Shown here in pieces: positions 187 to 45,644 of a DNA stretch of 45,644 nucleotides. A program made the position numbers and the translations under genes. Each line of letters begins with the position of its first letter. The stretch's first letter is position 1. Source of the stretch: a virus; the IMG/VR virus record IMGVR_UViG_3300045988_119588; one strand, 5' to 3'. The notes below the pieces were generated by a model. That model did not search any database. It saw only the letters and a program-made list of their open reading frames with translations, and was not told the DNA's origin.

Positions 187-1437
187 TTATGTAGCAATTC
201 GGTGTTCCTCGATAAATTTCATAAATTCTTTCTGGCTTTTCTTATTATCTTCTTTGCCAAAAAGGGTGAGCCAGGCTCTGTATTTTTCCCACGGCATATT
301 TTCCGAGATCGGATTTGCAATATTATCAAAATATCCATCAATTTTATCATCAACAGCAGTACGGATTTCGGAGAAGGTCTGGGTGTATACTTTTTTCATG
401 ATCTTATCAGACTTCCAGCCTCCGCGCTCCTGAGCATACTTGTCCGGGATACGCAGAGCCGCCATAACGGATGCGTTCAGGTGACGCAGATCATGAAAGG
501 TCATATGCTTAAACCGGTGCTCGTCTTGGAACTTGATCCACTTGTGATAGATCTGGGCTTCGGTCAGGGTAACAAGTCTGTCTCCTGGAACCTTATCAAT
601 CAGAGATTTGATATAGGGCGGAATCCTGTGAGTACGGTTACGGTATTTATTTTTTGCAATTTCTTTGCGGTGATCTTTACCGCCCACAACAACCACAACC
701 TCTGCAATGCGGATGTGATCCCCAGAGATTGATTTTGATTTTGTCAGTCCTCGGATCTCCGACATCGAGAAACTGAGCCAGGCAGCCAGCAGGACCGGCA
801 GCTCCAGCTCGTTGCCTTTGATCGCCGGCAGAAGCGCCTCCGCCGGTATCAGATCCGGCACACGATCAGGGACTTCTGGCAGTTCGATGTTGCGCAGGAC
901 ATCATCCAGAGAGCTTGTATACTTACGGATTACGGATGCAATAAGGCTCCATTCGTTCTGAAGACGCTTTGGGGAAAGTGTCGCACCTTTTTTTCGGTTG
1001 CAAGGACGCTTGGATTCCATATTGATCGATTCCTGCAGGAGTTCCTTGTCCATATCTTTGACACAAATCTGCATCAGGTCCTGAAAACCATTCCGCTGGA
1101 TACACCTATAATCCTGGATAGTAGTAAGAGATCTATTCAGGACAAGACGGGATTCAATGTATTTGTCTATCAATTCTGTAAGCGGAAGAAGAGTATAATC
1201 TACTTTCTTTTGCTTCGGCTGCTTTGCCAGTTCTTCTTCCTTCTGCAGAATAAATTGCGCTGCTGCAAGTTCTACCGCTTTTTTGGTGGGCCCGGTAATG
1301 GTTTTATATTTTCTTGTCGTCTTCTGTTCTCCATTCGGAAGCAGAACAGGAGTGCCGTCTGCATTATAGACCGGTTCTGAGTGACTGTATGGCTTAATAC
1401 ACCATGTTCCACTCGGCAGCTTATAAGGTGTTGCCAT
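187..1437 (-). CDS. int: Tyrosine integrase (phage integrase family)
   Basis: 416 aa. Catalytic signature in the translation: SEIRGLT (Arg I), HDLRHLNAS (His-x-x-Arg), GGWKS...KKVYTQT (Tyr). AGGAGGA RBS 7 nt before the ATG. Adjacent to the attP-like core. Confidence 0.92.
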   Translation of the reverse strand: MATPYKLPSGTWCIKPYSHSEPVYNADGTPVLLPNGEQKTTRKYKTITGPTKKAVELAAAQFILQKEEELAKQPKQKKVDYTLLPLTELIDKYIESRLVLNRSLTTIQDYRCIQRNGFQDLMQICVKDMDKELLQESINMESKRPCNRKKGATLSPKRLQNEWSLIASVIRKYTSSLDDVLRNIELPEVPDRVPDLIPAEALLPAIKGNELELPVLLAAWLSFSMSEIRGLTKSKSISGDHIRIAEVVVVVGGKDHRKEIAKNKYRNRTHRIPPYIKSLIDKVPGDRLVTLTEAQIYHKWIKFQDEHRFKHMTFHDLRHLNASVMAALRIPDKYAQERGGWKSDKIMKKVYTQTFSEIRTAVDDKIDGYFDNIANPISENMPWEKYRAWLTLFGKEDNKKSQKEFMKFIEEHRIAT

Positions 1438-1470
1438 AATATCATCCTCCTAAAAATGGGCATAAAAATG

Positions 1471-1495
1471 CCCGGTGGGTTGAAATTTCACCGGG
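1471..1495 (-). terminator. Hairpin CCCGGTG/CACCGGG followed by CAUUUUUA on the minus strand, between the nuclease gene and int
   Basis: 7-bp stem seen in sequence with a U-rich tail on the minus strand. Further hairpins at 1529-1545 and 1555-1583 make this spacer highly structured. Confidence 0.4.
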
Positions 1496-1593
1496 AAGAT
1501 GATACAATCAGCTTGTGTAGGGCTATTGTATCGGGCTTCCCGATGCGGTTCCTATCAGCTCCGGTGCGCCAACACTGGGGCTGATTTTTTATT

Positions 1594-2880
1594 CTATTCA
1601 ATTATATTATTGATAAGTGCTTGCAATTTGTCTCTGTCCCATAACTTTACGCGGAGACGTTCGGCTTCTGCCTTTGCCTGGGACGTAAAATAATGATTAG
1701 TGAGAACCACAGCGATATCCCTTTTATAAAGATCCTTACCGGTATATGCTTGTTGCACAGCAGCGTTTCCTATGTTTGACGTATAACATTTGCATTGTAT
1801 AGCGTAGGAGTTGCCGTCTTTGTCCGCTAAAATATCTACTCCGTGATCCCCACTGCCCTTCGTAACTTCAACATTTACAAAACCATTTTTCTTTAACAAG
1901 TCGGCACAGTAGTACTCAAATGAATGACCATCCATTTTATCCACAGTATCTAACTGAGATAAAGTTTTGTATATTTTCTGTTTTTCTGCTATACGATTCT
2001 TTAGCTTTTCCTCATAATAAGGCATTTCGTCTCGGATTGCTCTCAAATCAGCAGACGGTGTGCTGTCAGGCAGAAATACACCATATTCTTCAAATTGGGT
2101 CATCCATTGTAAAGTATCAATACAACTATTTAGTGCAGTATGAAATTCATTTTCATTATAAGACTTATTTGCTATTTGCGCATAATGAGAAGCTAACTGT
2201 GTTTTTTGCTCAAGAATAGTCTTTAATTCTTTTATAGTGTAATCGTAATTGCTTAATAGTATAATACGCTTATCTGGATGCAGAATCCGTTGAATTTTAT
2301 TTGCGGATTCTATTCTCTTGAAGTACCAGTTTATAGGGAGACACATATAATCTATGAATTTCATTCGTAATTGTTTTGCATGCAAAATTCTAAAAACAAT
2401 ATTTATGGGTAAAATATATACAGTATAAAAGTATATATCCAGTATTAGTAGTTCCCATATGTAAGGATGACGTCCTAACATGGACGTATCAATCGCAAAA
2501 AGAAATGAAAATATAATAATTATAGATAAACAGGGGATTGAAATAATAAAACGTCTTAAAAAGCGTGGCCCCATTTTTATCATTGAGTTTATTTTGTTAG
2601 AAATAGAGTCCATTTTGTCAGAAAATTTACGCTTTATAGTACGGTCCCCGTTATCTTTTAAATTAAATTCATTATATTCCTTTGGGCGTAACTCTGTCAT
2701 ATGCTCTTTTATATAAGAATCTATTTGCTCCTGCGTAGCAATGATTGAATAAATAGTTTCATTTTTTTGCTTTATGTAGCCGATTTCAACAAGATGTTCA
2801 ATTATATTTTTAGCATAGTAAAATCCTAAATTATATTCTCGCTGTATTCCTGTGATTGTAATTTCGCCTACAGTACTCAT
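1594..2880 (-). CDS. FtsK-gamma-like wHTH + 2 TM helices + C-terminal Mrr-type PD-(D/E)xK nuclease domain (candidate lysogen-expressed defence/exclusion protein)
   Basis: 428 aa. The N-terminus ITITGIQREYNLGFYYAKNIIEHLVEIGYI resembles the FtsK gamma segment [28 protein letters not shown]. Hydrophobic helices at about aa 105-130 and 140-166. The C-terminus GDHGVDILA...YAIQCKCY...VVLTNHYFTSQA matches the Mrr_cat core. AAGGGGA RBS. Visibly AT-rich relative to its neighbours. Confidence 0.8.
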   Translation of the reverse strand: MSTVGEITITGIQREYNLGFYYAKNIIEHLVEIGYIKQKNETIYSIIATQEQIDSYIKEHMTELRPKEYNEFNLKDNGDRTIKRKFSDKMDSISNKINSMIKMGPRFLRRFIISIPCLSIIIIFSFLFAIDTSMLGRHPYIWELLILDIYFYTVYILPINIVFRILHAKQLRMKFIDYMCLPINWYFKRIESANKIQRILHPDKRIILLSNYDYTIKELKTILEQKTQLASHYAQIANKSYNENEFHTALNSCIDTLQWMTQFEEYGVFLPDSTPSADLRAIRDEMPYYEEKLKNRIAEKQKIYKTLSQLDTVDKMDGHSFEYYCADLLKKNGFVNVEVTKGSGDHGVDILADKDGNSYAIQCKCYTSNIGNAAVQQAYTGKDLYKRDIAVVLTNHYFTSQAKAEAERLRVKLWDRDKLQALINNIIE

Positions 2881-2896
2881 TATAAAATCCCCTTTA

Positions 2897-3373
2897 TTAT
2901 ATTAATTCCAGTACAGATAAGCCAGGTTCAAAATAGATAACATAATTATCAATTTTGGCACATACGCCATACTTACTTCGGTAGCACCGGAGTGCATCCA
3001 GTAGAAATTCCTCAGTTACACCCAAGTGTTCCGCCATATCATATGCTGTTTGGCATCCCTCTTTGTAGCATGAGATGATACCATGCAATCCGATCAGCTT
3101 ATTATATCCCCAGAGCCGTGCGTGTAGTTCCTGCTTGCGGTTGGTAGTGTCGGACAGCTCCAGTATAATTCCTTCGGTCGTGTGATAATGTCCCAGTTCT
3201 TCCGAAAGAACACACGCTTTTTCGGCGTCGGTATTCAAACTGTCGCTGACAGCAATATTTCCATCACAGTATAACCCTTTTATTCTAGGACTGCGAAATT
3301 TGCGATCGTAAATAGTAACTCCTTCCGCATCCGGAGAGGATGCAAGTCTTTCATAAGTAGTCAAATATATCAC
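2897..3373 (-). CDS. ImmA/IrrE-like (COG2856) protein, partner of the XRE repressor
   Basis: 158 aa, immediately downstream of the repressor in the same operon. The metal motif is degenerate (SEELGHYH rather than HExxH). The start is ambiguous: GTG 3373 or TTG 3364, the latter with better GAAGGG spacing. Confidence 0.6.
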   Translation of the reverse strand: MIYLTTYERLASSPDAEGVTIYDRKFRSPRIKGLYCDGNIAVSDSLNTDAEKACVLSEELGHYHTTEGIILELSDTTNRKQELHARLWGYNKLIGLHGIISCYKEGCQTAYDMAEHLGVTEEFLLDALRCYRSKYGVCAKIDNYVIYFEPGLSVLELI

Positions 3374-3415: not shown

Positions 3416-3724
3416 TTATTTCCTTTTGTTTTTGACAAATTCTGCAAATTGACGGATCTCGTCAAGCTCATCTTCTGTAAATTCGGAACCATCAAAGTGA
3501 GCAGCAAGTGTATGAGGTTCGTCTTCAATTCCAAGTAAATCATCAGCCGATACAGACAAGAGATCGGCTAGTTTCTTTATTGTCTGAACACTAGGCTCCC
3601 TATTTCCACTTTCATATAATGAGTAAGTTGATTTTGCTACTCCTATATTTTCAGCAACTTCTTTTTGGGAGTATCCCCTTCTCATTCTTGCATTTCGTAA
3701 ATTTTCATTAAAGTTGTCACCCAT
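3416..3724 (-). CDS. CI-like XRE-family repressor
   Basis: 102 aa from ATG 3724, with AAGGAGG 8 nt upstream (the track ORF starts earlier, at 3772). HTH: RGYSQKEVAENIGVAKSTYSLYESGNREPSVQTIKKLADLLSVSADDLL. Confidence 0.85.
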   Translation of the reverse strand: MGDNFNENLRNARMRRGYSQKEVAENIGVAKSTYSLYESGNREPSVQTIKKLADLLSVSADDLLGIEDEPHTLAAHFDGSEFTEDELDEIRQFAEFVKNKRK

Positions 3725-3748
3725 AATGGAACCTCCTTTATATAAACC

Positions 3749-3777
3749 ATTATATTTAGTAGCTGCAAACATGTCAA
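3749..3777 (-). promoter_or_regulatory. Leftward consensus sigma-70-type promoter for the repressor operon
   Basis: Read on the minus strand: -35 TTGACA (3777-3772), 17-nt spacer, -10 TATAAT (3754-3749). The spacer contains a TGCAAAC half-site. Confidence 0.6.
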
Positions 3778-3808: not shown

Positions 3809-3837
3809 TTGACAAGTTTGCTAACAGCAATTATATT
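3809..3837 (+). promoter_or_regulatory. Rightward early promoter (Cro-like operon)
   Basis: -35 TTGACA (3809-3814), 17-nt spacer, -10 TATATT (3832-3837). Confidence 0.55.
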
Positions 3838-6808: not shown

Positions 6809-7428
6809 TGGATGAAAATTTAAAAATATACAATGCAGTGAGGGTTGTTCCGACCGAAGCCAAGCGGTCGATCACTGGTGGCAGGCTGAAGGGTAAGACG
6901 GAAATCAATCCGATGTGGAGAATCAAGACTCTTACAGATCAGTTTGGTCCTTGCGGAATCGGATGGTACTACGAAGTTACAAAGCAGTGGTTAGAACCTT
7001 CCGGGAATGAGGTCGCAGCCTTTGTAAATATCAATCTGTACATAAAAGTTGCTGGGGAGTGGTCAAAGCCTATTCCCGGGGTTGGTGGAGCCATGTTTGT
7101 TGAGAATCAGAAATCAGGTGAGTATGTGTCGGATGAGTGTTACAAGATGGCTACCACGGATGCTATTTCAGTGGCCTGCAAGCAGCTTGGTATCGGAGCG
7201 GATGTGTACTGGGATGCGGATAAGACCAAGTACACGGATCCTGCGCAGCCTACTGAGAATGACAGCAAAAGACTGGAGCCGGTATTTGCCGAGTTGAAAA
7301 GGATAGGCTACAGTGCTAATTCGGTATGCAAGACCTATAAGATTGCTAGTGTGTATGACTTATCAGATTTGCAGATCAAAGATTTCTTGCAAAAGACCAA
7401 GAATATGCCGGATAAGGAGGCAGGCTGA
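6808..7428 (+). CDS. Rad52/Sak-type single-strand annealing protein
   Basis: 206 aa from ATG 6808 (ATGA overlap with the upstream stop). Signature: KMATTDAISVACKQLGIGADVYW and INPMWRIKTLTDQFGPCGIGWYYE. Confidence 0.7.
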   Translation: MDENLKIYNAVRVVPTEAKRSITGGRLKGKTEINPMWRIKTLTDQFGPCGIGWYYEVTKQWLEPSGNEVAAFVNINLYIKVAGEWSKPIPGVGGAMFVENQKSGEYVSDECYKMATTDAISVACKQLGIGADVYWDADKTKYTDPAQPTENDSKRLEPVFAELKRIGYSANSVCKTYKIASVYDLSDLQIKDFLQKTKNMPDKEAG

Positions 7429-7964
7429 TGGAATTTACCGGAAAAGTGTCCGGGATCACTATGGACTATGCCACTGGGAAATATAACATATCCTTCCAGG
7501 CGGAATCCGCGGATGCTGTGACCAGCCAGTATGACAGGATTAAAGATATTGACAGACTGGTGATTACAGCAAAAAAGTACCGCAAGAAGAGATCACTGGA
7601 TGCCAATGCATACGCATGGGTGCTGATGACCAAGATCGCGGATGCACAGGAGTATCCCACCACGAAAGAAGAGATCTACGAGAAGATGCTGAAGGACTAC
7701 GGTGTGTTAGAAGAAGTTGACGGCGCACCTATTACGGTAACGGTCAAGGCCTGCGTGGACATGAGCAGGATAAGCGGACACTGGTTTCTGATAAAGAACA
7801 ACGGCACCTTTAAGGCATATGCGATGATCAAAGGATCCAGCGAGTATGATACGAAGGAAATGAGCCATTTTATTGACGGAATCATTGCTGAATGTAAGGA
7901 ACTTGGAATAGAGACCCTTCCACCGGCAGAACTGGAAGAAATGATGAAAGCGTGGAAGCCATGA
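7428..7964 (+). CDS. NinB/Orf-like recombination mediator
   Basis: 178 aa. KKRSLDANAYAWVL parallels lambda Orf RSLDQNRKLWACL. KGSSEYDTKEMSHFIDGIIAECKELGIE parallels GQSTSRMRVGEFAELLELIQAFGTERGV. Confidence 0.55.
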   Translation: MEFTGKVSGITMDYATGKYNISFQAESADAVTSQYDRIKDIDRLVITAKKYRKKRSLDANAYAWVLMTKIADAQEYPTTKEEIYEKMLKDYGVLEEVDGAPITVTVKACVDMSRISGHWFLIKNNGTFKAYAMIKGSSEYDTKEMSHFIDGIIAECKELGIETLPPAELEEMMKAWKP

Positions 7965-8254
7965 AAAAGTGTTGGAGCGTGCTTACGGATGATATGAACC
8001 ATTGTTATATTACGCGTTTGAATGTGGTCCATATCCATCACATATTTAATGGCAGCCGAAAGGCAGCCAGTGAGAAAAGAGGATTCCTGGTGCCGCTGCA
8101 TCCTACCTTACATACCTATGGTCCCGACAGCGTGCACAGGAAACCGAATCAGGGACTTGACCTTCGATTGAAGCAGGAATGTCAGCGGTATTATGAGGAG
8201 CATTACGGATCCCGTGAAGAGTTTATAAAAGAGTTTGGAAGATCTTATCTATAA
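7952..8254 (+). CDS. Conserved phage protein (HHIFxG...SEKxG family, zinc ligands degenerate)
   Basis: 100 aa. HIHHIFNGSRKAASEKRGFLVPLHPTLH...REEFIKEFGRSYL resembles a common small Firmicute-phage family of unknown function. The start is uncertain (7952 or 7961). Confidence 0.5.
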   Translation: MEAMKKCWSVLTDDMNHCYITRLNVVHIHHIFNGSRKAASEKRGFLVPLHPTLHTYGPDSVHRKPNQGLDLRLKQECQRYYEEHYGSREEFIKEFGRSYL

Positions 8255-8256
8255 GG

Positions 8257-8697
8257 TTGAAACACCTGCCCTGCGGGGCGAAAGAAACCGTTTGTGTTAG
8301 TGATGGTGTCTCACAAACAGCCATTATTATCGTCAGGGCGGACGGTAGCGCCGCCCAGGAGGTGATCACTATTCTGATTGAGAATTACATACCTTTTGGA
8401 TATGCCAACAGAATCTCACGGGAAAAGCTGTCAGCTGATACACACATGAGCGACAGGAAGAACAGGAAGCTGATGGAAGAGGCTCTGCTGTACCGTGACA
8501 CTCTGATCATAAATATAGATAACGGATACTTCCGGCCGGACGGCAGCCTGGGAGACCGCCAGAAGGCCAAGGCTTATCTGTACCGGGAGCAGATGCGGAC
8601 AAGTAGCTGCAGCAAGCGTTGCAAGGCTATCAGGCAGTGTCTGACACCCAAGGAAGATACCGGGCAGATGTCACTGAAAGAATTTGGAATAGGGTAG
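8257..8697 (+). CDS. Hypothetical protein; start uncertain
   Basis: Track ORF of 146 aa with a TTG start and no good RBS. The first internal ATG is at 8443. Confidence 0.4.
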   Translation: MKHLPCGAKETVCVSDGVSQTAIIIVRADGSAAQEVITILIENYIPFGYANRISREKLSADTHMSDRKNRKLMEEALLYRDTLIINIDNGYFRPDGSLGDRQKAKAYLYREQMRTSSCSKRCKAIRQCLTPKEDTGQMSLKEFGIG

Positions 8698-9393
8698 GTG
8701 ACGGATATGGATTACATAAAGCTGAGCCGGAAGATACTGGAGTGGGAATGGTATGGGAACATAAATACCTGCCGGCTGTTTATCCATATGCTGTTAAAAG
8801 CCTACTGGAAGGATACGAAGATAGAGGGAAAAATGATACCGCGTGGATCGTTCGTATCATCATACGGGAAGCTTGCAGAGGAAACGAACCTCACAACAGA
8901 CGAAGTAAGGACTGCTGTTAAGCACTTAATTTTTACCAAGGAGATTGCCAAGCAGACATACTCCAAAAATACCGTATTTACGGTAAATAATTACGATGCT
9001 TACCAAAATGTCCCAAGCAACTTCCCAGGCAATTCCCAACCTATTCCCACGCTATTCCCAACAAATGAAGAATATAAAGAAATAAAGAATTTTAAAAAAG
9101 AAGTACCTAAAGGTACTAAGAAAAAATTTGAGCCACCGTCGGTTGATGATGTCAGATCTTACTGCCAGGAGCGTGGGAATGGAATTGATCCTGAGTGCTT
9201 TGTTGATTTTTACAAAGCCAAGGACTGGATGATCGGCAAGAACAAGATGAAGGACTGGAAGGCAGCCGTCCGTACTTGGGAGAGAGCCGAACGGAGAGCA
9301 CCTGAGCAGAAGACGGATAAGATCAACAAGGGAATGATGCGTAGCAACTACGAAGACATGGCAGAGCTGGAGAAGCAGTTGTTGTCGAATTGA
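8698..9393 (+). CDS. Phage replisome organizer / DnaD-like replication protein
   Basis: 231 aa. N-terminal wHTH-like region YIKLSRKILEWEWY...RGSFVSSYGKLAEETNLTTDEVRTAVKHL. C-terminal module PSVDDVRSYCQERGNGIDPECFVDFYKAKDWMIGKNKMKDWKAAVRTWE is typical of this family. ATG 8707 is an alternative start. Confidence 0.7.
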   Translation: MTDMDYIKLSRKILEWEWYGNINTCRLFIHMLLKAYWKDTKIEGKMIPRGSFVSSYGKLAEETNLTTDEVRTAVKHLIFTKEIAKQTYSKNTVFTVNNYDAYQNVPSNFPGNSQPIPTLFPTNEEYKEIKNFKKEVPKGTKKKFEPPSVDDVRSYCQERGNGIDPECFVDFYKAKDWMIGKNKMKDWKAAVRTWERAERRAPEQKTDKINKGMMRSNYEDMAELEKQLLSN

Positions 9394-14672: not shown

Positions 14673-14781
14673 TTAAAGCCAATAGTTTTGGCAATTTGTT
14701 GCGATAAACCACAACACAAGTAAAAACCACATGTGATATTTTGACACCGCATATGTAAGTAAATCGAAAGGAGTGAGAGGT

Positions 14782-16044
14782 TTGCTGGCCAGCGTGAAAG
14801 AGCTCTTTACTCCGAAGATAATAATGGAATCAGTAAAAGAAAGAATGGAGAGAATCGGGGCATATGCAAAGATTGCTTCATTCATGCAGAAAGAAAAGCA
14901 GGATTATAGTTTTAAAAGAAAATATGCGCAGATTCGCGCGGAAGAGTTTCGCCGGGAGTGTGATAAGAGAGGCCTTAATTGCCATGTATCGGTAGGTGGA
15001 CTGGATAGCATTATCCTTTACATATTTCTGAAAAAGGTATGCAACATTGATGTTCCAGGAGTATCCGCATCATATCTGGAAGACAAGAGTATTCAGAAGG
15101 TGCACAGGGCAATCGGAATTATCAATGTACCACCGTTGAAACGCGAGGACGGAACCTATTGGAGTAAACCGAAGGTGATTCAGGAGTTCGGCTTCCCGGT
15201 GATCTCCAAAGAGGTGGCAGCAAAGATAGAACTGCTACAAAATCCTTCGGAGAAGAATAAGACAGTACGCCACGCCATTATTACCGGTGAGACTGGGGAA
15301 TATGGTGGCTGGCAGAAAGATTCCCGAATGAAACTTAACCACAGATGGCTGAAGCTTTTCGGTGGGTATGAGAACGAAAACGAGGGATGTGATTATCAGA
15401 AGCCTGATTTCTTGGTATCTTCCAAGTGCTGTTATTACCTCAAAGAAAAGAACTGTGATGACTGGGGAAAAGAGCATAACAGTGTACCGTATTTAGGGTT
15501 GATGGCATCAGAGGGCGGCAGACGTGCCAAGAGCCTGCGGATGAATGGGTGCAATTACTTTGGAGCATCCACAATCAGATCAGCGCCGTTTGCTATTTTC
15601 CACCGACAGGATATTCTGTCCCTAGCACTGGAGATGGACGAGCAGTGGCGGAATGGATGGAAAGATGAATTCCATGAACAGCTATTGCGTGAGGGAAAGC
15701 TTACAGAGAATTTTGTGATGCCGGAGTCGTTGATCCCGGAGATATACGGGACCATCGAGAAGAAACCGGACGGAACTCTGTATACCACCAAAGCACAGAG
15801 AACCGGTTGCAGCATGTGTGGATTTGGAATCCACATGGAAAAGAGACCACACAGGTTCGATCTGCTATATGAAAGCAATCCCAAGGAATGGGATTATCTG
15901 ATGTTCCATATGTGTAAGGATTCAGACGGCAATGACTATGGTTGGGCAAAAGTATTGGAATATATTGGTGTTGGATGGGATCCATCAACTATCGGTGGTA
16001 ATTGCAAAGGGCAGATGAGCATAGATGATTTTATGGATTATTAA
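14782..16044 (+). CDS. PAPS-reductase/DndC/IbrA-like PP-loop protein
   Basis: About 420 aa. PP-loop variant HVSVGGLDS, CCYYLKEK motif, C-terminal GCSMCGFG cysteine cluster. Start proposed at TTG 14782 (AAAGGAG 8 nt upstream); the track start is GTG 14773. Confidence 0.8.
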   Translation: MLASVKELFTPKIIMESVKERMERIGAYAKIASFMQKEKQDYSFKRKYAQIRAEEFRRECDKRGLNCHVSVGGLDSIILYIFLKKVCNIDVPGVSASYLEDKSIQKVHRAIGIINVPPLKREDGTYWSKPKVIQEFGFPVISKEVAAKIELLQNPSEKNKTVRHAIITGETGEYGGWQKDSRMKLNHRWLKLFGGYENENEGCDYQKPDFLVSSKCCYYLKEKNCDDWGKEHNSVPYLGLMASEGGRRAKSLRMNGCNYFGASTIRSAPFAIFHRQDILSLALEMDEQWRNGWKDEFHEQLLREGKLTENFVMPESLIPEIYGTIEKKPDGTLYTTKAQRTGCSMCGFGIHMEKRPHRFDLLYESNPKEWDYLMFHMCKDSDGNDYGWAKVLEYIGVGWDPSTIGGNCKGQMSIDDFMDY

Positions 16045-16384: not shown

Positions 16385-18907
16385 GTGACTTACAGAGAGT
16401 TTTTAGAATCAAAAATAGAACTGGCGCAGGACAGCGGATTTGTTGTGGATCCTGCGAAGATCAATAAAGCATTGAAACCACACCAGCGGGACGCTGTGAT
16501 GTGGGCACTGAAAGGCGGCAGACGGGCACTTTTTGAATCTTTCGGATTGGGTAAGACCATCCAGGAGATTGAGTTCTGCCATCTGGCGGCGGAACATTGC
16601 AATGGAAGGGCACTGATTGTGCTGCCACTTGGAGTAAAGCAGGAGTTCACCCGGGATGCGGTGGATATCCTTGGATATGATCGCCCGGAGTATTGCCGGA
16701 CGATGGAAGAAGTGGAACAGAGCAGTAGTCAAATCGTGCTGACGAATTATGAGCGTGTCCGGGATGGAGACATCCGACCGGAATATTTCGCAGCTACGTC
16801 TCTTGATGAAGCCAGTGTTTTACGAAGCTTTGGCAGCAAGACCTATCAGACGTTCCTTGACAAATTTAAACACGTACCGTATAAGCTGGTAGCCACGGCT
16901 ACACCGTCACCGAACAAATACAAGGAGCTGATCCATTATGCTGGATATCTGGAAGTGATGGACACCGGACAGGCACTGACCAGATTTTTTCAAAGGGACA
17001 GCACGAAAGCAAACAACCTGACGCTCTACCCGAATATGGAAGATGAGTTCTGGATGTGGGTAAGCAGCTGGGCATTGTTTATTACAAAACCTTCTGATCT
17101 CAATCCGGAGTATTCCGATGAAGGCTACGATCTGCCGGAACTGGATGTGCGGTGGCATGAACTGCCGGTACATTATGGTGATACGGCGGACAGAGACGGT
17201 CAGATGCAGCTGTTCCAGGAAGCCGCAGAAGGTGTGAAAGAAGCTGCGGCGGTAAAACGGGATAGCATTGGCGCAAGGGTGGCAAAGATGCAGGAGATTG
17301 TAAATGGATCCCCGGATGATCATTTTTTGCTGTGGCATGATTTGGAAAGCGAGCGCGCGGCAATTCTGAAAGCGATTCCTGGGGTGATAGATATCTACGG
17401 ATCTATGGACTACGATCTCCGGGAACAGAGAGTGATTGATTTCTCCAACGGTAAGAGCCGGCTGTTTGCTACCAAGAAATCGTTATCCGGATCCGGATGT
17501 AACTTTCAGCGCTATTGTCACCGGGAGATCTTTCTGGGGATTGATTACGAGTTTAACGATTTCATTCAGGCAATACACCGGTGCTACCGATTCTTGCAGA
17601 CGGATCGTGTGGTAATCGACATTATTTACATGGAGAACGAGCGGCAGATCCGTGAAGCACTGGAAGAAAAATGGAAGAATCATAATCACATGGTTGAAAA
17701 GATGATAGAGATCGTAAAAAAGTATGGTCTGAACTCTGCAAACAAGGCAGAGCGGCTGGAAAGGAAGATGGGTGTGGAAGGAAGCAGAGAAGAAAGAACG
17801 GTAAGGGGAAAACATTACGAAGCGGTATATGGTGACTGCGTGGAAGAAACAAGGGCAATGGAAAGCAACAGTATTGACCTGATACATACGTCTATTCCCT
17901 TCGGCAACCACTACGAATACAGCGCCAATTATAACGACTTCGGGCATAATCAGGATACAGATCGGTTTTTTGAACAGATGGACTTTTTGACACCGGAACT
18001 GCTCCGGGTGCTTCGACCCGGCAGGGTGGCAGCTATCCACGTAAAGGACCGCGTGCTATTCGGTAATGCGACCGGAACCGGAATGCCGACCATAGAGCCG
18101 TTCCATGCGTTATGTATCGCACATTACATGAAACATGGTTTCCAGTACTTCGGCATGATTACCGTTGTAACTGATGTAGTGCGTGAGAATAATCAGACCT
18201 ACCGCCTTGGATGGACAGAACAGTGCAAGGACGGATCCAAGATGGGAGTAGGCTGTCCGGAATATATCCTGCTTTTCCGAAAACTGCCGACAGACAGATC
18301 TACGGCGTATGCGGATGATCCAGTCAAAAAATCGAAAGAGGATTACACCCGCGCTCAGTGGCAGATTGATGCACATGGTTACTGGAGATCATCCGGAGAC
18401 AGGCTGATCAGCAAGGAAGAACTGGAGAGTATATCTGTGGATAATCTGCAGGCTGTGTACCGGGAATTTAGCAGGGATCATGTCTACAGCTACGAGGAAC
18501 ACGTAGAGCTGGCTAAGAAGCTGGATGAAAATGGGAAACTCCCGGCTACCTTCATGGTAGTCGCACCGGGAAGTTGGAACCAGATGGAAGTATGGGATGA
18601 TATCAACCGGATGCGTACCCTTAACACAACACAGAGCCGCAGGCGGGCACAGATGCACGTATGTCCATTGCAGCTGGATATCGTGGAGCGGATTATCAAC
18701 AGATACAGTAACGAGGGTGATACGGTCTATGATCCATTCGGCGGTCTGATGACGGTACCTATGACCGCAGTGAAGATGCATCGGTACGGAAAGGGCTGTG
18801 AGCTGAATCTGGATTACTTCCGGGATGGTGTTGGTTATCTGCAGGCAGCGGAGAATGAAGTGGACGAGCCTACATTGTTTGATTTTATGCCGGAGGTGAT
18901 GGCATGA
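16385..18907 (+). CDS. SF2/SNF2-like helicase fused to a beta-class N6A/N4C DNA methyltransferase
   Basis: 840 aa. Helicase motifs GLGKT (I), SLDEAS (II), ATATPSPN (III), QAIHRCYRFLQ (VI-like). MTase motif IV IHTSIPFGNHYEY (about aa 500) precedes motif I VYDPFGGLMTVP (about aa 780), which is the beta-class order. Confidence 0.85.
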   Translation: MTYREFLESKIELAQDSGFVVDPAKINKALKPHQRDAVMWALKGGRRALFESFGLGKTIQEIEFCHLAAEHCNGRALIVLPLGVKQEFTRDAVDILGYDRPEYCRTMEEVEQSSSQIVLTNYERVRDGDIRPEYFAATSLDEASVLRSFGSKTYQTFLDKFKHVPYKLVATATPSPNKYKELIHYAGYLEVMDTGQALTRFFQRDSTKANNLTLYPNMEDEFWMWVSSWALFITKPSDLNPEYSDEGYDLPELDVRWHELPVHYGDTADRDGQMQLFQEAAEGVKEAAAVKRDSIGARVAKMQEIVNGSPDDHFLLWHDLESERAAILKAIPGVIDIYGSMDYDLREQRVIDFSNGKSRLFATKKSLSGSGCNFQRYCHREIFLGIDYEFNDFIQAIHRCYRFLQTDRVVIDIIYMENERQIREALEEKWKNHNHMVEKMIEIVKKYGLNSANKAERLERKMGVEGSREERTVRGKHYEAVYGDCVEETRAMESNSIDLIHTSIPFGNHYEYSANYNDFGHNQDTDRFFEQMDFLTPELLRVLRPGRVAAIHVKDRVLFGNATGTGMPTIEPFHALCIAHYMKHGFQYFGMITVVTDVVRENNQTYRLGWTEQCKDGSKMGVGCPEYILLFRKLPTDRSTAYADDPVKKSKEDYTRAQWQIDAHGYWRSSGDRLISKEELESISVDNLQAVYREFSRDHVYSYEEHVELAKKLDENGKLPATFMVVAPGSWNQMEVWDDINRMRTLNTTQSRRRAQMHVCPLQLDIVERIINRYSNEGDTVYDPFGGLMTVPMTAVKMHRYGKGCELNLDYFRDGVGYLQAAENEVDEPTLFDFMPEVMA

Positions 18908-25299: not shown

Positions 25300-25560
25300 A
25301 TGGCGAACCTGAGAGGAAAGATGAAGAAATTACAGACTGCGCTGGTAAAGCGCGGAATGATCATAAAGATAAACCAGCGTCAGTTCTACTCCGAGGATCA
25401 GAACCGGATGATCACCTCGTACAGCATCGTTACCCCGGTGGAGTGCTACTACCCGGGCAAGGAAGAGTGGAAGACTAAAGAATATGAGATTCTGAAGACA
25501 TGCTCAATGGTAGATGTGATATTCTGCCTGTTGGATATCTATAAGGCGGTGAGTGAATGA
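25300..25560 (+). CDS. Hypothetical protein (86 aa)
   Basis: Track ORF with AGGAAGGAGATGATCAG upstream and an ATGA overlap with the terminase start. Confidence 0.55.
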   Translation: MANLRGKMKKLQTALVKRGMIIKINQRQFYSEDQNRMITSYSIVTPVECYYPGKEEWKTKEYEILKTCSMVDVIFCLLDIYKAVSE

Positions 25561-27269
25561 AGAATGAGCTCACGATGAAACAGAAAGCATTTGCAGATGA
25601 GTATGTAAAGAATGGTGGGAATGCAACACAGGCAGCAATAAGCGCAGGATATTCTGCAAAAACAGCATATTCGCAGGGACAAAGGTTGCTGAAAAAAGTT
25701 GATGTTGCGGATTATATAGGATCTCAGATGGAGCGCATCGAGAAGGAGCAGCACCGGGATATCATGTCTCTGGCAGACATCCAGGAGCGCCGGAGTAAGA
25801 TTGCAAAGGGAGAGGTCGTGGATGGACTGGGATTTGCCCCGGACTTTTCTGACCAGCTGAAAGCAATGGACGGACTGGAAAAAGCATTGGCGATTGCTGA
25901 GAAGCAGCGCATAGAGCGAGAGGAGAAGGAGAAACGCGAAAAGGCACCGCTGTGGACGATTCCGATCACTGACGCTACGTCTGATTTTGTAGAGATATAC
26001 CGGACAGTGCATGAAGCCTTCGCAGGAGAGATAGATATTCATGAGATTATATCCAAAGGCGGCCGCGGATCTGTCAAGTCGAACTTCTGGGGCAATCTGG
26101 CATACGAAACTATCCGGCAGGATCCTCATGCCCACGTGGTATATACCAGAAGATACAAGATAGATCTGCGTGGGTCTGTTTATAACCAGTTTATGAAGAC
26201 GGTCATCCGGTACAACGATCTGGACAACTGGGATTTCAAGCAGTCTCCGCTGTGCGCAGTGTATAAGCCTACGGGTCAGATGGTGATGTTCGTGGGTGCG
26301 GATAAGCCCATATCCCTAAAATCTTTCAATGTTCCGTTTGGTTATGTAAAGCTGCTGATCCATGAAGAGTGTGACGAGATGGCAGGTGTGGAGCAGATGG
26401 ACAACATCGAGGATACCTTCCTCCGATCTGATACTCCGGCACTGGATATTAAAATATTCAACCCACCGAAGAGCAAGAATAATTTCATGAATCAGTATGT
26501 GGAAGAATGCAGGAATAAGCCGCAGACACGGATCTGTCACAGCTATTATTATAATGTGCCTGAGAAGTGGCTGGGAAAGCGATTCTTCGAGCGTGCGGAG
26601 TGGTTCAGAGTACATAAGCCGCGATACTATGATAACAACTACCTTGGTAAGGTAACAGGTACCGGAGGCGGTATCTTCGACAATGTGGAAGAACGGACCA
26701 TAACGGATGCAGAAATTGAGAATATGCCGTTCTTCTATCACGGCCTTGACTTCGGATTTGAGCATCCGCAGACCTTTGAAAAAGCATACTATGATGCTGA
26801 TGCAGATATCCTTTACTGCGTGGGAGAGGTCTTTGCGAAGAGATGCAAGAACAGCACGTTTGCCCGGAAGATTAAAGGCTATATCACAGAGGAAATCATA
26901 TGTGATTCTGCACGTCCGGATGCAATAGCTGAGATGCAGGACTGGGGCTTCAATGCAATCGGAGCAAAGAAGCGCTGGGGATCCGGCAAGGGAAGGGATT
27001 ATTGCTGGGAGTGGTTGCAGCAGACCACGAAGATTGTGGTTGATCCTGTGCGTTGCCCTCACCTGGCACATGAGCTGACCACACTGGAACATGAGCAGCT
27101 GGCAGACGGCAGCTTTTCGGATGCTTACCCTACTCTGGACGAAGACTGTGTCATGGCTCTGATATATGGATTGAACCGAGTGATTATGGAGAGCAGACGT
27201 AACAATGGACTGTATGATGACGAAATAGATGAAGTAGATGAGGAGGATGATGGAGAGTATGAAGATTAA
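25557..27269 (+). CDS. Terminase: small-subunit (Terminase_2-like) domain fused in frame to a PBSX/Terminase_3-type large subunit
   Basis: 570 aa. The N-terminus LTMKQKAFADEYVKNGGNATQAAISAGYSAKTAYSQGQRLLKKVDVADYI is the TerS signature. Walker A KGGRGSVKS lies at about aa 178, where TerL of this family normally has it at about aa 30-40. There is no stop or internal start between the two domains. Confidence 0.85.
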   Translation: MKNELTMKQKAFADEYVKNGGNATQAAISAGYSAKTAYSQGQRLLKKVDVADYIGSQMERIEKEQHRDIMSLADIQERRSKIAKGEVVDGLGFAPDFSDQLKAMDGLEKALAIAEKQRIEREEKEKREKAPLWTIPITDATSDFVEIYRTVHEAFAGEIDIHEIISKGGRGSVKSNFWGNLAYETIRQDPHAHVVYTRRYKIDLRGSVYNQFMKTVIRYNDLDNWDFKQSPLCAVYKPTGQMVMFVGADKPISLKSFNVPFGYVKLLIHEECDEMAGVEQMDNIEDTFLRSDTPALDIKIFNPPKSKNNFMNQYVEECRNKPQTRICHSYYYNVPEKWLGKRFFERAEWFRVHKPRYYDNNYLGKVTGTGGGIFDNVEERTITDAEIENMPFFYHGLDFGFEHPQTFEKAYYDADADILYCVGEVFAKRCKNSTFARKIKGYITEEIICDSARPDAIAEMQDWGFNAIGAKKRWGSGKGRDYCWEWLQQTTKIVVDPVRCPHLAHELTTLEHEQLADGSFSDAYPTLDEDCVMALIYGLNRVIMESRRNNGLYDDEIDEVDEEDDGEYED

Positions 27270-31135: not shown

Positions 31136-31207
31136 CGGCATTTAATTCAGTGGTAGAAGACACGGATTATATCCGGGTTGCCGGAGGTTCGAATCCTTCA
31201 ATGCCGA
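31136..31207 (+). tRNA. tRNA-like gene, anticodon UAU (Ile, AUA-reading)
   Basis: Hand-folded cloverleaf. Acceptor CGGCATT/AATGCCG (7 bp). D arm ATTC-AGTGGTA-GAAG (3 bp plus an A.G pair). Anticodon arm CACGG-AUUAUAU-CCGGG (one A.G mismatch, U33, A37). Variable loop TTGCC. T arm GGAGG-TTCGAAT-CCTTC. Discriminator A, no encoded CCA. Confidence 0.6.
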
Positions 31208-31288
31208 CTGCCAGCTATGGATCAAATAGCAACTCAATCGTGCCGGGCTGACCGGATTAACAACTTTTAAGAATGAGAGGAAACGAGA

Positions 31289-45555: not shown

Positions 45556-45644
45556 AAGCGCGAGACGGGGATCGAACCCGCAAAGCATTTTTGTTAGAAA
45601 TGCCGAAAATACGGGAAATGCTGATAAACACTGGGTTTACAATA
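45556..45644. repeat. Terminal direct repeat, copy 2 (identical to 1-89)
   Basis: 89/89 identity with the window start. Confidence 0.95.
45557..45601 (-). other. Second copy of the tRNA 3' fragment (same sequence as 2-46)
   Basis: Part of the terminal repeat. Same T arm and acceptor reading as at 2-46. Confidence 0.6.

Follow-up and report, generated by a model that had tools for sequence, protein, structure and literature searches.

A predicted membrane-anchored Mrr-type nuclease in the ImmA-to-integrase slot of a Lachnospiraceae temperate phage, a candidate defence protein of the lysogen

Defence by a single membrane-anchored nuclease is a concept already known from SNIPE and Epona. SNIPE combines a transmembrane (TM) anchor, a DNA-binding DUF4041 domain and a GIY-YIG nuclease (bioRxiv 10.1101/2025.11.03.685801; PMC13190303); it is an inner-membrane protein whose nuclease faces the cytoplasm, it cuts lambda DNA during injection, and when it is deprived of the TM segment it becomes toxic and cleaves the host chromosome (PMC13190303). 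Among SNIPE homologues conservation is highest in the nuclease and lowest at the N-terminus, and those that lack a TM segment use other membrane-targeting domains (PMC13190303). Epona, from a V. cholerae integron cassette, is a fusion of Mrr_cat to a two-TM segment with single-gene anti-phage activity (Darracq et al., bioRxiv 10.1101/2024.07.02.601686); this activity was seen only in E. coli, and the authors call the two-TM part a 'holin domain' (bioRxiv 10.1101/2024.07.02.601686). Here we analyse gene X, which encodes a 428-amino-acid Mrr_cat protein in the viral sequence IMGVR_UViG_3300045988_119588 of IMG/VR (45,644 nucleotides; this whole stretch is called the window). We favour, at about an even chance, the reading that X is a prophage-encoded, membrane-tethered nuclease that cuts DNA at its entry through the membrane and so defends the lysogen. 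We infer the defensive role from genomic context and analogy, and cleavage at the injection site goes one step further. An earlier note on this DNA knew of no described defence system with a DNA-reading winged helix and a restriction-type nuclease at opposite ends of a membrane anchor; with SNIPE and Epona, comparable defences are now on record. What is new is the architecture of X, in which an FtsK-gamma-derived winged helix, a TM hairpin, a family-specific helical module and Mrr_cat are joined, together with the size and modularity of its family; new as well are its systematic placement between ImmA and integrase beside SNIPE homologues and an apparent alternation of TM anchors with FtsK-derived modules.

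The C-terminus of X carries the nuclease. Pfam Mrr_cat (PF04471) matched residues 313-423 with 108.9 bits against a cut-off of 21 (E=2e-31), over profile positions 1-115 of 115, and the same profile was matched by all 30 homologues of X. The motifs GDHGVD and IQCKCY that the earlier note had picked out are present, and conservation of the catalytic D/E-x-K residues was borne out: E322, D345, D349, Q362, C363 and K364 are invariant in 30 of 30 full-length homologues. The C-terminal domain is modelled with a restriction-endonuclease-like alpha/beta fold; Foldseek placed it near MspJI (4f0p, 1.5e-4), AF1548 (1y88, 1.8e-4), AspBHI (4oc8, 2e-3) and Hjc-type enzymes, and a profile search of the PDB with X saw only the Mrr core, matching 1y88. 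The D...QxK arrangement is said to have been described by Bujnicki and Rychlewski in 2001 as the Mrr-type active-site configuration. A secondary Pfam match to NA-iREase1 (39.2 bits, E=7.4e-10) would fit a dead fold whose sole task in X is to bind DNA or to act as a sensor, by analogy with the inactive restriction endonucleases associated with NACHT; however, Mrr_cat scores far higher and E322, D345, D349 and K364 are invariant, and we consider an inactive domain extremely unlikely.

Mrr_cat also occurs in modification-dependent enzymes, and X could be a membrane-bound Type IV enzyme for which modified bases in the invading DNA, and not its location, mark the target. Like E. coli Mrr, MspJI and AspBHI, X belongs to the Mrr_cat family and has a D...QxK-type motif; in structure it comes closest to the catalytic domains of MspJI and AspBHI, both of them modification-dependent, no cognate methyltransferase lies beside it, and a winged helix followed by Mrr_cat is formally the layout of E. 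coli Mrr. However, E. coli Mrr, MspJI and AspBHI are soluble proteins with dedicated readers of modified bases (Mrr_N, SRA-like), whereas X is predicted to be membrane-anchored and has no Pfam match at E<=1 to Mrr_N, SRA or another modified-base reader, and its winged helix resembles FtsK gamma and not Mrr_N. Moreover, most members of the family consist of TM segments and Mrr_cat only, with no DNA-reader domain, and Mrr_cat doubles as a non-specific effector in other systems (bioRxiv 10.1101/2024.07.02.601686). Recognition of modified bases by X is therefore, in our judgement, very unlikely. Among PADLOC profiles, those that matched X did so in the nuclease domain alone (ZorD C-terminus, 8.5e-22; PDC-S02, 1.3e-13; LmuA, 4e-9), and matches to PHROGs and NCBIfam were limited to the nuclease domain or to families of unassigned function. 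Zorya ZorD, Lamassu LmuA and PDC-S02 thus share an Mrr-like nuclease domain with X, and Zorya is also membrane-linked; X has no SNF2 helicase and no further domain in Pfam, and its immediate neighbours are integrase and ImmA rather than ZorABC or LmuB.

The four-part architecture proposed in the earlier note was recovered by Pfam, hydropathy and AlphaFold2 (AF2), which agree on a winged helix, a two-TM hairpin, a helical region and Mrr_cat. The AF2 model was built on 30 homologues (the alignment comprised 30 full-length homologues of 42-75% identity) and reached a mean pLDDT of 89.1 with a pTM of 0.51, so that the relative orientation of the domains is uncertain. In the model, the winged helix (residues 6-46) is followed by helices 50-59, 67-71 and 82-112, the last of which runs into TM1, then by the helices 115-134 and 141-170, which correspond to the hydrophobic stretches at about 110-134 and 141-168, by a helical region (185-314) and by the alpha/beta nuclease core (318-427). 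Residues 82-109 have a net charge of +6, five lysines or arginines lie just before TM1 and four just after TM2, and no segment resembling a signal peptide was found among the N-terminal 110 residues. Because X has a two-helix hairpin with flanks rich in lysine and arginine, the winged helix and the nuclease are expected on the same cytoplasmic side, and both soluble domains are predicted to sit side by side at the cytoplasmic face of the membrane. The earlier description of the two domains as occupying opposite ends of a membrane anchor is thus right for the sequence, but not for the predicted arrangement in space, where the hairpin brings both into the cytoplasm.

Within the full-length clade, mean pairwise identity is 0.74 in Mrr_cat, 0.34 in the juxtamembrane helix and 0.31 in the TM hairpin; the nuclease is the most and the hairpin the least conserved region. 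This bears on the possibility that X is an abortive infection (Abi) effector, in which the hairpin would sense membrane stress or act in a holin-like manner and infection would turn the nuclease loose on the DNA of host and phage alike; the lysogen would die or be arrested, and there would be no selective cutting of incoming DNA. The two-TM hairpin with both ends inside is the layout that the Epona authors named 'holin domain', AbiD is found in the slot that X occupies, Mrr_cat is an effector in Lamassu, Avs and other Abi-type systems (bioRxiv 10.1101/2024.07.02.601686), and the toxicity of TM-less SNIPE through cleavage of host DNA implies that such proteins kill cells easily. On the other hand, Pfam gave no match of X to a holin family at E<=1, no separate sensor or NTPase domain was detected in X, and low conservation of the TM region is what a mere anchor would be expected to display. 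We regard an Abi effector as unlikely. A holin or lysis function of X itself was rejected, given the lack of a holin family match in Pfam, the location in the lysogeny operon and an endolysin gene at the opposite end of the genome.

The helical module between membrane and nuclease (about residues 212-312) has thirteen invariant positions (L223, L229, H232, N238, E245, F246, S252, L257, W259, M260, F263, E264 and P275), but neither X nor its homologues gave a Pfam match there, and no sequence or fold match was found in the PDB. A phmmer search with the module against 1.84 billion representatives yielded 15 weak to moderate matches at E<=0.001; those with E<1e-4 were nine proteins of 222-422 amino acids, five of which were already known homologues of X. 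The module is therefore essentially confined to the X family, and pairing with other effectors was not seen among the phmmer matches.

X resembles SNIPE in several ways: one polypeptide unites a membrane anchor, a DNA-binding part (putative in X) and a C-terminal nuclease, which in X is predicted to be cytoplasmic; conservation peaks in the nuclease, and the membrane part is among the most variable regions; and there are TM-less relatives with other targeting modules. The two proteins are nevertheless non-homologous, SNIPE being built of GIY-YIG/T5orf172 and DUF4041, and X of Mrr_cat, an FtsK-gamma-like winged helix and a family-specific helical module. In addition, SNIPE has one TM helix with its N-terminus outside, whereas X has a hairpin with both ends predicted inside, and cleavage at the time of injection and binding of the tape measure have been shown for SNIPE only. 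Judged by its description, Epona comes nearer than any other described architecture to the core of the X family, with Mrr_cat and two TM helices in a single protein; as described, it lacks the winged helix and the helical module and comes from Vibrio integron cassettes. Because Epona showed anti-phage activity, a membrane-anchored Mrr_cat protein is able to defend on its own.

The genomic position of X agrees with what the earlier note had stated: the open reading frame (ORF) list and the Pfam identities of its neighbours place the 428-codon ORF between int and the ImmA/repressor pair, on the lysogeny strand. To the slot between ImmA and integrase we applied a survey in which IMG/VR was scanned with the ImmA of the window and the ORFs lying between ImmA and integrase were read; 58 loci contained 80 same-strand cargo ORFs that fell into 29 families. 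The cargo included a 530-amino-acid full-length PD-Lambda-1 homologue at 5 loci (E=2.5e-82, profile positions 41-474 of 491), AbiD/Abi_2 at 5 loci (E=1.3e-31), an NYN RNase, a HicB-like protein, DUF6978 with DUF1828/1829, and proteins that strongly match the PADLOC candidates PDC-S05, S13, S22, S23, S03 and M24B. The slot is thus a real hotspot, and with homologues of SNIPE and AbiD among its occupants the suggestion that prophage immunity genes gather here was well founded. Because PD-lambda-1 is the system that has been renamed SNIPE (Saxton et al.; Nature 2026, PMC13190303), X and a validated membrane nuclease are alternative occupants of one slot, which SNIPE homologues share with X in related Lachnospiraceae phages. 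PD-Lambda-1 homologues were seen at L213, at L218 (7551-9143) and at related IMG/VR loci, in temperate phages of Lachnospiraceae type; by homology, SNIPE-type defence is prophage cargo in Gram-positive gut bacteria.

In phages whose ImmA is 88-90% identical to that of the window, X is replaced by a gene for about 181 amino acids or, in one case, 208 amino acids; five of these loci, all with the shorter cargo, have a 416-amino-acid integrase equal in length to that of the window. X is therefore accessory cargo, or a 'moron': it occupies a variable slot, is replaced in close relatives and is co-oriented with the lysogeny genes. The AT-richness that the earlier note had found typical of a moron is likewise real: the GC content of X is 0.332 and reaches its minimum of 0.287 at 2201-2600, while the window as a whole has 0.438, int 0.457 and ImmA 0.428; the repressor and switch region is similarly AT-rich (0.31-0.36). 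The replacing protein of about 181 amino acids consists of a DUF4190 TM segment and a DUF3862/BLIP-like domain (L184-L190, for example L186 7505-8050) and might act in exclusion as a classical protein of the Sie type. Prophage superinfection-exclusion membrane proteins such as Sie of lactococci and Ltp of S. thermophilus are small, are expressed from the lysogeny region and keep superinfecting phage DNA from entering; unlike X, they have no nuclease, and they act by blocking injection and not by cutting DNA. HK97 gp15 is a further prophage superinfection-exclusion membrane protein (SNIPE discussion, PMC13190303).

Under the reading that we favour, X would be co-expressed with the repressor and ImmA in the lysogen. 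The membrane tether, possibly aided by the family-specific helical module, would hold the nuclease off the nucleoid, and superinfecting phage genomes, perhaps also other mobile DNA, would be bound and cleaved at their point of entry, with the winged helix and the basic juxtamembrane segments assisting in DNA binding. Self and non-self would be distinguished by location, as has been shown experimentally for the non-homologous SNIPE. Nuclease activity of X, its expression in the lysogen, DNA binding by the winged helix and an anti-phage effect are all things that we infer.

Several observations weigh against this reading. PADLOC matched the Mrr-like nuclease domain, but with only that domain aligned it found no whole defence system in X. 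Nothing in the sequence of X ties it to SNIPE: PADLOC gave no PD-Lambda-1 match, Pfam found neither DUF4041 nor T5orf172, and BLAST showed no similarity with a SNIPE homologue; a counterpart of the DUF4041 domain, which in SNIPE serves tape-measure and DNA binding, was not found in X. The winged helix of X lacks the arginines of the recognition helix in the gamma domains of its paralogues. The nuclease core is 55-77% identical even to that of family proteins with another architecture, which is unusually high for a defence effector. R. intestinalis carrying phage Jekyll, whose genome encodes a member of the family, still collapsed under ultravirulent mutants of the myovirus Shimadzu (Jekyll paper), and therefore any protection is not universal. 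The proposed mechanism also gives no account of how host DNA close to the membrane would be spared. Our literature search found no experimental report on any member of the X family, whose proteins are labelled 'restriction system protein' or 'restriction endonuclease'. To these points is added the chromosomal distribution of some relatives, which is considered below with the family.

The winged helix proved more divergent than expected from the earlier note, in which it had been taken for a KOPS-reading FtsK gamma domain. FtsK_gamma (PF09397) is the best, and the sole, N-terminal Pfam match of X, but it covers residues 6-41 with 19.7 bits, below the cut-off of 30.6 (profile positions 19-54 of 63); 20 of the 30 homologues matched it individually, the best with E=7.6e-6. 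Paralogues within the nuclease family have unambiguous gamma domains (78-88 bits in Pfam), and hhalign aligned the N-terminal domain of X to these with a probability of 94.7% (E=5.7e-8) over 34 columns only. The overlap comprises helices 2-3 and the start of the wing, helix 1 being absent from X, and the F-N-R-A-A-R-I of the paralogues reads F-Y-Y-A-K-N-I in the X clade. A PDB profile search with the N-terminal domain ranked E. coli FtsK gamma first without reaching significance (E=0.13; five of eight chains were FtsK gamma). Modelled alone, the domain is a generic winged helix (pLDDT 77.9), for which a fold search placed MarR- and Sso10a-type proteins on top (best E=0.028, none below 0.001) and FtsK gamma 2J5P at rank 25 (E=0.12, rmsd 2.6 A, TM 0.53/0.56).

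The FtsK/SpoIIIE gamma domain (PF09397; PDB 2J5P, 2VE8/9) is thus the closest sequence family of the winged helix, from which X differs in its sub-threshold match, in the missing helix 1 and in having YYAKN for NRAAR. By profile comparison the domain is a truncated, divergent relative of FtsK gamma; a complete gamma domain of three helices and wing was not found in X, as judged by Pfam and hhalign coverage. The change from NRAAR to YYAKN suggests an altered or lost binding specificity. Reading of KOPS or SRS sites by X thus finds no backing in the sub-threshold Pfam match, the short alignment, the lost helix, the substituted motif and the generic fold. We also rejected XerD-type activation of the neighbouring integrase by X: the family is associated with tyrosine and serine integrases alike, most members have no gamma domain and helix 1 is missing.

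X belongs to a family for which at least 574 loci were found in species-representative genomes and a further 378 in IMG/VR; among the loci listed, almost all hosts are Lachnospiraceae, including Acetatifactor, Eisenbergiella, Roseburia, Butyrivibrio and Hungatella. A census of architectures in 272 members found the X type, with winged helix, two TM helices, helical module and Mrr_cat, in 28. Other combinations were one TM helix and Mrr_cat in about 150 amino acids (53 members, all from genomes), two TM helices and Mrr_cat (26), three TM helices and Mrr_cat (22), two TM helices, helical module and Mrr_cat (21), helical module, true gamma domain and Mrr_cat (25), and true gamma domain and Mrr_cat (17); variants with a Zn-ribbon are also present. 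Judged from these sequences, the family is large and modular, spans Lachnospiraceae and their phages and has a highly conserved Mrr_cat core.

TM helices are predicted in 211 of the 272 members, and membrane anchoring is nearly always the partner of this nuclease subfamily. True gamma domains occur in 45 of 61 TM-less but in only 22 of 211 TM-containing members (Fisher p ~2e-21, which is descriptive only, as the sequences are non-independent). In the single-TM relatives (n=51), 242 lysines and arginines follow the helix and 42 precede it, with more after than before in 48 of 51; because the excess follows the helix, these proteins are expected to have the N-terminus outside and the C-terminus inside, which indicates a cytoplasmic nuclease family-wide. 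Seven paralogues add a remnant of the FtsK motor domain (52-56 bits in Pfam in two, and a sub-threshold 19.4 in a third, at profile positions of about 57-154 of 221), and the Walker A motif is present in none of the seven. These TM-less proteins (P0114 at L019 7001-8710, P0053, P0089, P0071, P0076, P0079 and P0115) combine helical module, true gamma domain, motor remnant and Mrr_cat, and the gamma domain precedes the motor remnant, an order permuted with respect to FtsK itself.

It is conceivable, although on balance we doubt it, that the X family has arrived at the SNIPE principle independently, by convergence, with another nuclease and with parts of FtsK/SpoIIIE translocases. TM helices or gamma and motor modules would then be alternative means of targeting membrane sites of DNA entry or translocation, and the chromosomal single-TM form would be a constitutive 'membrane guard' in many gut species. 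A role as membrane guards had been suggested speculatively in 2005 for TM-anchored YraN-like nucleases (PMC1189080); apart from SNIPE and Epona, this was all that our literature search turned up, and it contained no characterisation of the X architecture.

For genomic context, neighbours were clustered over 156 loci, the cluster representatives were identified by Pfam and the counts were made with hidden Markov models; a lysogeny context was defined as same-strand genes with a CI-type repressor and/or M78 protein upstream and an integrase downstream. Forms of at least 180 amino acids stood in such a context at 67 of 97 loci (17 of 23 from genomes and 50 of 74 viral), so that the placement of X in a lysogeny module extends to its homologues, and both tyrosine and serine integrases accompany the family. 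P0002, 74% identical to X, occupies the same slot of a different element that carries REP_ORF2-G2P, RNase H and PcfJ genes, and there the start of the X homologue overlaps ImmA by 8 nucleotides; P0014 (47% identical) follows repressor and ImmA in a phage with a serine recombinase and is itself followed by further cargo.

The remaining forms raise a different possibility, in which X is no defence gene but serves DNA processing for host or phage at the membrane or septum, for example by clearing or processing DNA near FtsK/SpoIIIE-type translocases or by degrading host DNA on induction, and prophages would have acquired the gene secondarily. The single-TM form of about 150 amino acids, with no integrase nearby, has conserved chromosomal synteny at 38 of 53 species-level loci, where it lies by DUF885 or Mem_trans; MarR, ABC, FGGY and transketolase genes are further neighbours. 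Defence genes are not usually conserved in this way, and the pattern may point to a different ancestral role. P0019 shares the layout of X except that its helical module is duplicated; it stands alone in the chromosome amid sugar-metabolism genes and was seen on hundreds of contigs, and P0114 is likewise a standalone chromosomal gene. These chromosomal genes complete the points that speak against a defensive X, and the repeated recruitment of FtsK parts (gamma domains of 78-88 bits, motor remnants without Walker A) and the very high conservation of the nuclease would also suit a housekeeping-like, non-defensive task. However, the gene is dispensable and swappable in phages, the closest relatives of the window holding another gene in the slot; X lies on the lysogeny strand with the repressor, outside the lytic and replication modules; its association with both tyrosine and serine integrases argues against a cofactor specific to one recombinase; and the part of gamma that contacts XerD, which we take to lie in the helix-1 region, is missing. 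We therefore consider a non-defensive function of X quite unlikely.

The single-TM form was found at L034-L100 (for example L039 in Eisenbergiella tayi, L064 in Butyrivibrio sp. and L066 in Acetatifactor muris) and has a strongly basic stretch after the TM helix. A 380-amino-acid form with two TM helices and Mrr_cat occurs on about 20 related viral contigs (L141, L158-L180, at about 7230-8720), outside a recognisable lysogeny module; its neighbours are a 799-amino-acid ORF of coiled-coil type and several ORFs to which Pfam assigns nothing.

In the cultured Roseburia phage Jekyll, the family member (VUE37434.1) is a protein of 280 amino acids composed of a Zn-ribbon, a TM hairpin and Mrr_cat. 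The gene order is an Xre-like repressor, a gene annotated 'toxin' at the position of ImmA, the X homologue, one further gene and the integrase; the Jekyll paper does not discuss the X homologue. The two genes upstream are annotated as Xre-like antitoxin and toxin (L181, LR596902.1, 41216-42211), and the Jekyll paper invokes stabilisation by a toxin-antitoxin system. This annotation may be wrong because the two genes stand where the window has its repressor and ImmA. For the window itself, a toxin-antitoxin reading of the genes upstream of X was rejected, as these encode an HTH_3 repressor and an M78 ImmA-type protein.

The coordinates of X and of the features around it are collected in Table 1. 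At least 24 public contigs encode an identical X protein, each time with the genes arranged as repressor, ImmA, X, integrase, and the protein is also encoded on a 44.5-kb IMG/VR contig; with full-length homologues at 42-75% identity in addition, X is a real gene. All four genes of this order lie on the minus strand of the window. The stop codon of ImmA is at 2897-2899, leaving a gap of 16 nucleotides before X, and related contigs have the repressor called as a 102-amino-acid product. Because a consensus promoter lies ahead of the repressor, repressor, ImmA and X look like one lysogeny transcript; the promoters of this region are consensus pattern matches, which are no proof of function. Downstream of X, the hairpin at 1554-1585 has no T tail on the minus strand, and the hairpin at 1473->1458 carries a T run and directly precedes the ribosome-binding site of int. 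Within X, an 11/12 sigma-70-like promoter match was noted at 2671-2700 (-), near codons 60-70, which may be a chance occurrence in AT-rich DNA or a start for a product without the winged helix.

Table 1. Gene X, its predicted parts and the surrounding lysogeny region (positions in the window)
Feature	Position	Strand	Basis or remark
X, whole gene (stop codon 1594-1596 included)	1594..2880	-	ORF list; 428 amino acids, ATG start
X residues 6-47, N-terminal winged helix, truncated and divergent, FtsK-gamma-like	2740..2865	-	Pfam, hhalign, AF2
X residues 48-109, short helices, then long basic juxtamembrane helix	2554..2739	-	AF2, charge
X residues 110-168, predicted two-helix TM hairpin, loop of ~8 residues	2377..2553	-	Hydropathy, AF2
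X residues 169-312, basic linker and conserved helical module (~212-312)	1945..2376	-	Alignment
X residues 313-428, Mrr_cat PD-(D/E)xK nuclease core	1597..1944	-	Pfam, Foldseek
X catalytic-type residues, whole span	1789..1917	-	E322 1915-1917; D345 1846-1848; D349 1834-1836; Q362-C363-K364 1789-1797
Shine-Dalgarno sequence AAAGGGGA of X	2888..2895	-	8 nucleotides upstream of ATG; read from sequence
ImmA-like Peptidase_M78 gene, directly upstream of X	2897..3373	-	Pfam PF06114, E=1.5e-7
CI/Xre-type HTH_3 repressor, first operon gene	3416..3772	-	Pfam HTH_3, E=2.3e-17
Perfect sigma-70 consensus promoter match TTGACA-17-TATAAT before repressor	3749..3777	-	Consensus scan
Divergent 11/12 sigma-70 promoter match toward early lytic genes	3809-3837	+	Consensus scan
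Tyrosine integrase, downstream of X	187..1437	-	Pfam PF00589, E=1.7e-7
X-int intergenic region	1458..1585	-	13-bp-stem hairpin 1554-1585; second hairpin 1473->1458

The window, from a phage of gut Lachnospiraceae, is a complete siphovirus-type temperate phage genome and encodes a terminase, portal, major head protein, tape measure and endolysin. Positions 1-89 are identical to 45556-45644 (89 nucleotides, an assembly overlap or a terminal repeat); because the first 89 nucleotides match the last 89, the window closes into a circle and does not represent a prophage flanked by host DNA. This repeat, beside the integrase, holds a segment resembling a tRNA 3' end (…GACGGGGATCGAACCCGC…), where ARAGORN calls no tRNA, and the segment is probably the attP core. 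A tRNA-Ile gene with anticodon TAT lies at 31136-31208 (+), between head genes. An 840-amino-acid protein (16385-18907, +) matches a PHROG DNA helicase (5e-121) as well as several PHROGs of DNA methyltransferases (with values down to 5e-28), and a 423-amino-acid PAPS-reductase-like protein (phrog_424) is encoded at 14773-16044 (+); the phage may modify its own DNA, which would be relevant if X were modification-dependent. In a 570-amino-acid ORF at 25557-27269 (+), residues 1-124 match PHROGs of the small terminase and residues 165-548 those of the large terminase; the ORF may be a TerS-TerL fusion or the result of a missed start or a frameshift.

Defence-annotation pipelines miss the X family because its members are annotated only as 'restriction endonuclease'. 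If X serves in defence, the discrimination of foreign DNA by location would reach a second, unrelated nuclease scaffold beyond SNIPE, and the principle would extend to Gram-positive gut commensals, which are abundant but little studied, and to their prophages; there it could influence which hosts a phage can infect and how prophages compete. The repeated recruitment of FtsK gamma and of an inactivated motor suggests a specific, testable way in which nucleases may be targeted to sites of DNA translocation. A cultured system is at hand in Roseburia intestinalis L1-82 and phage Jekyll. If X is not a defence protein, the conserved chromosomal single-TM nuclease would point to a new membrane-associated DNA-processing function in Lachnospiraceae.

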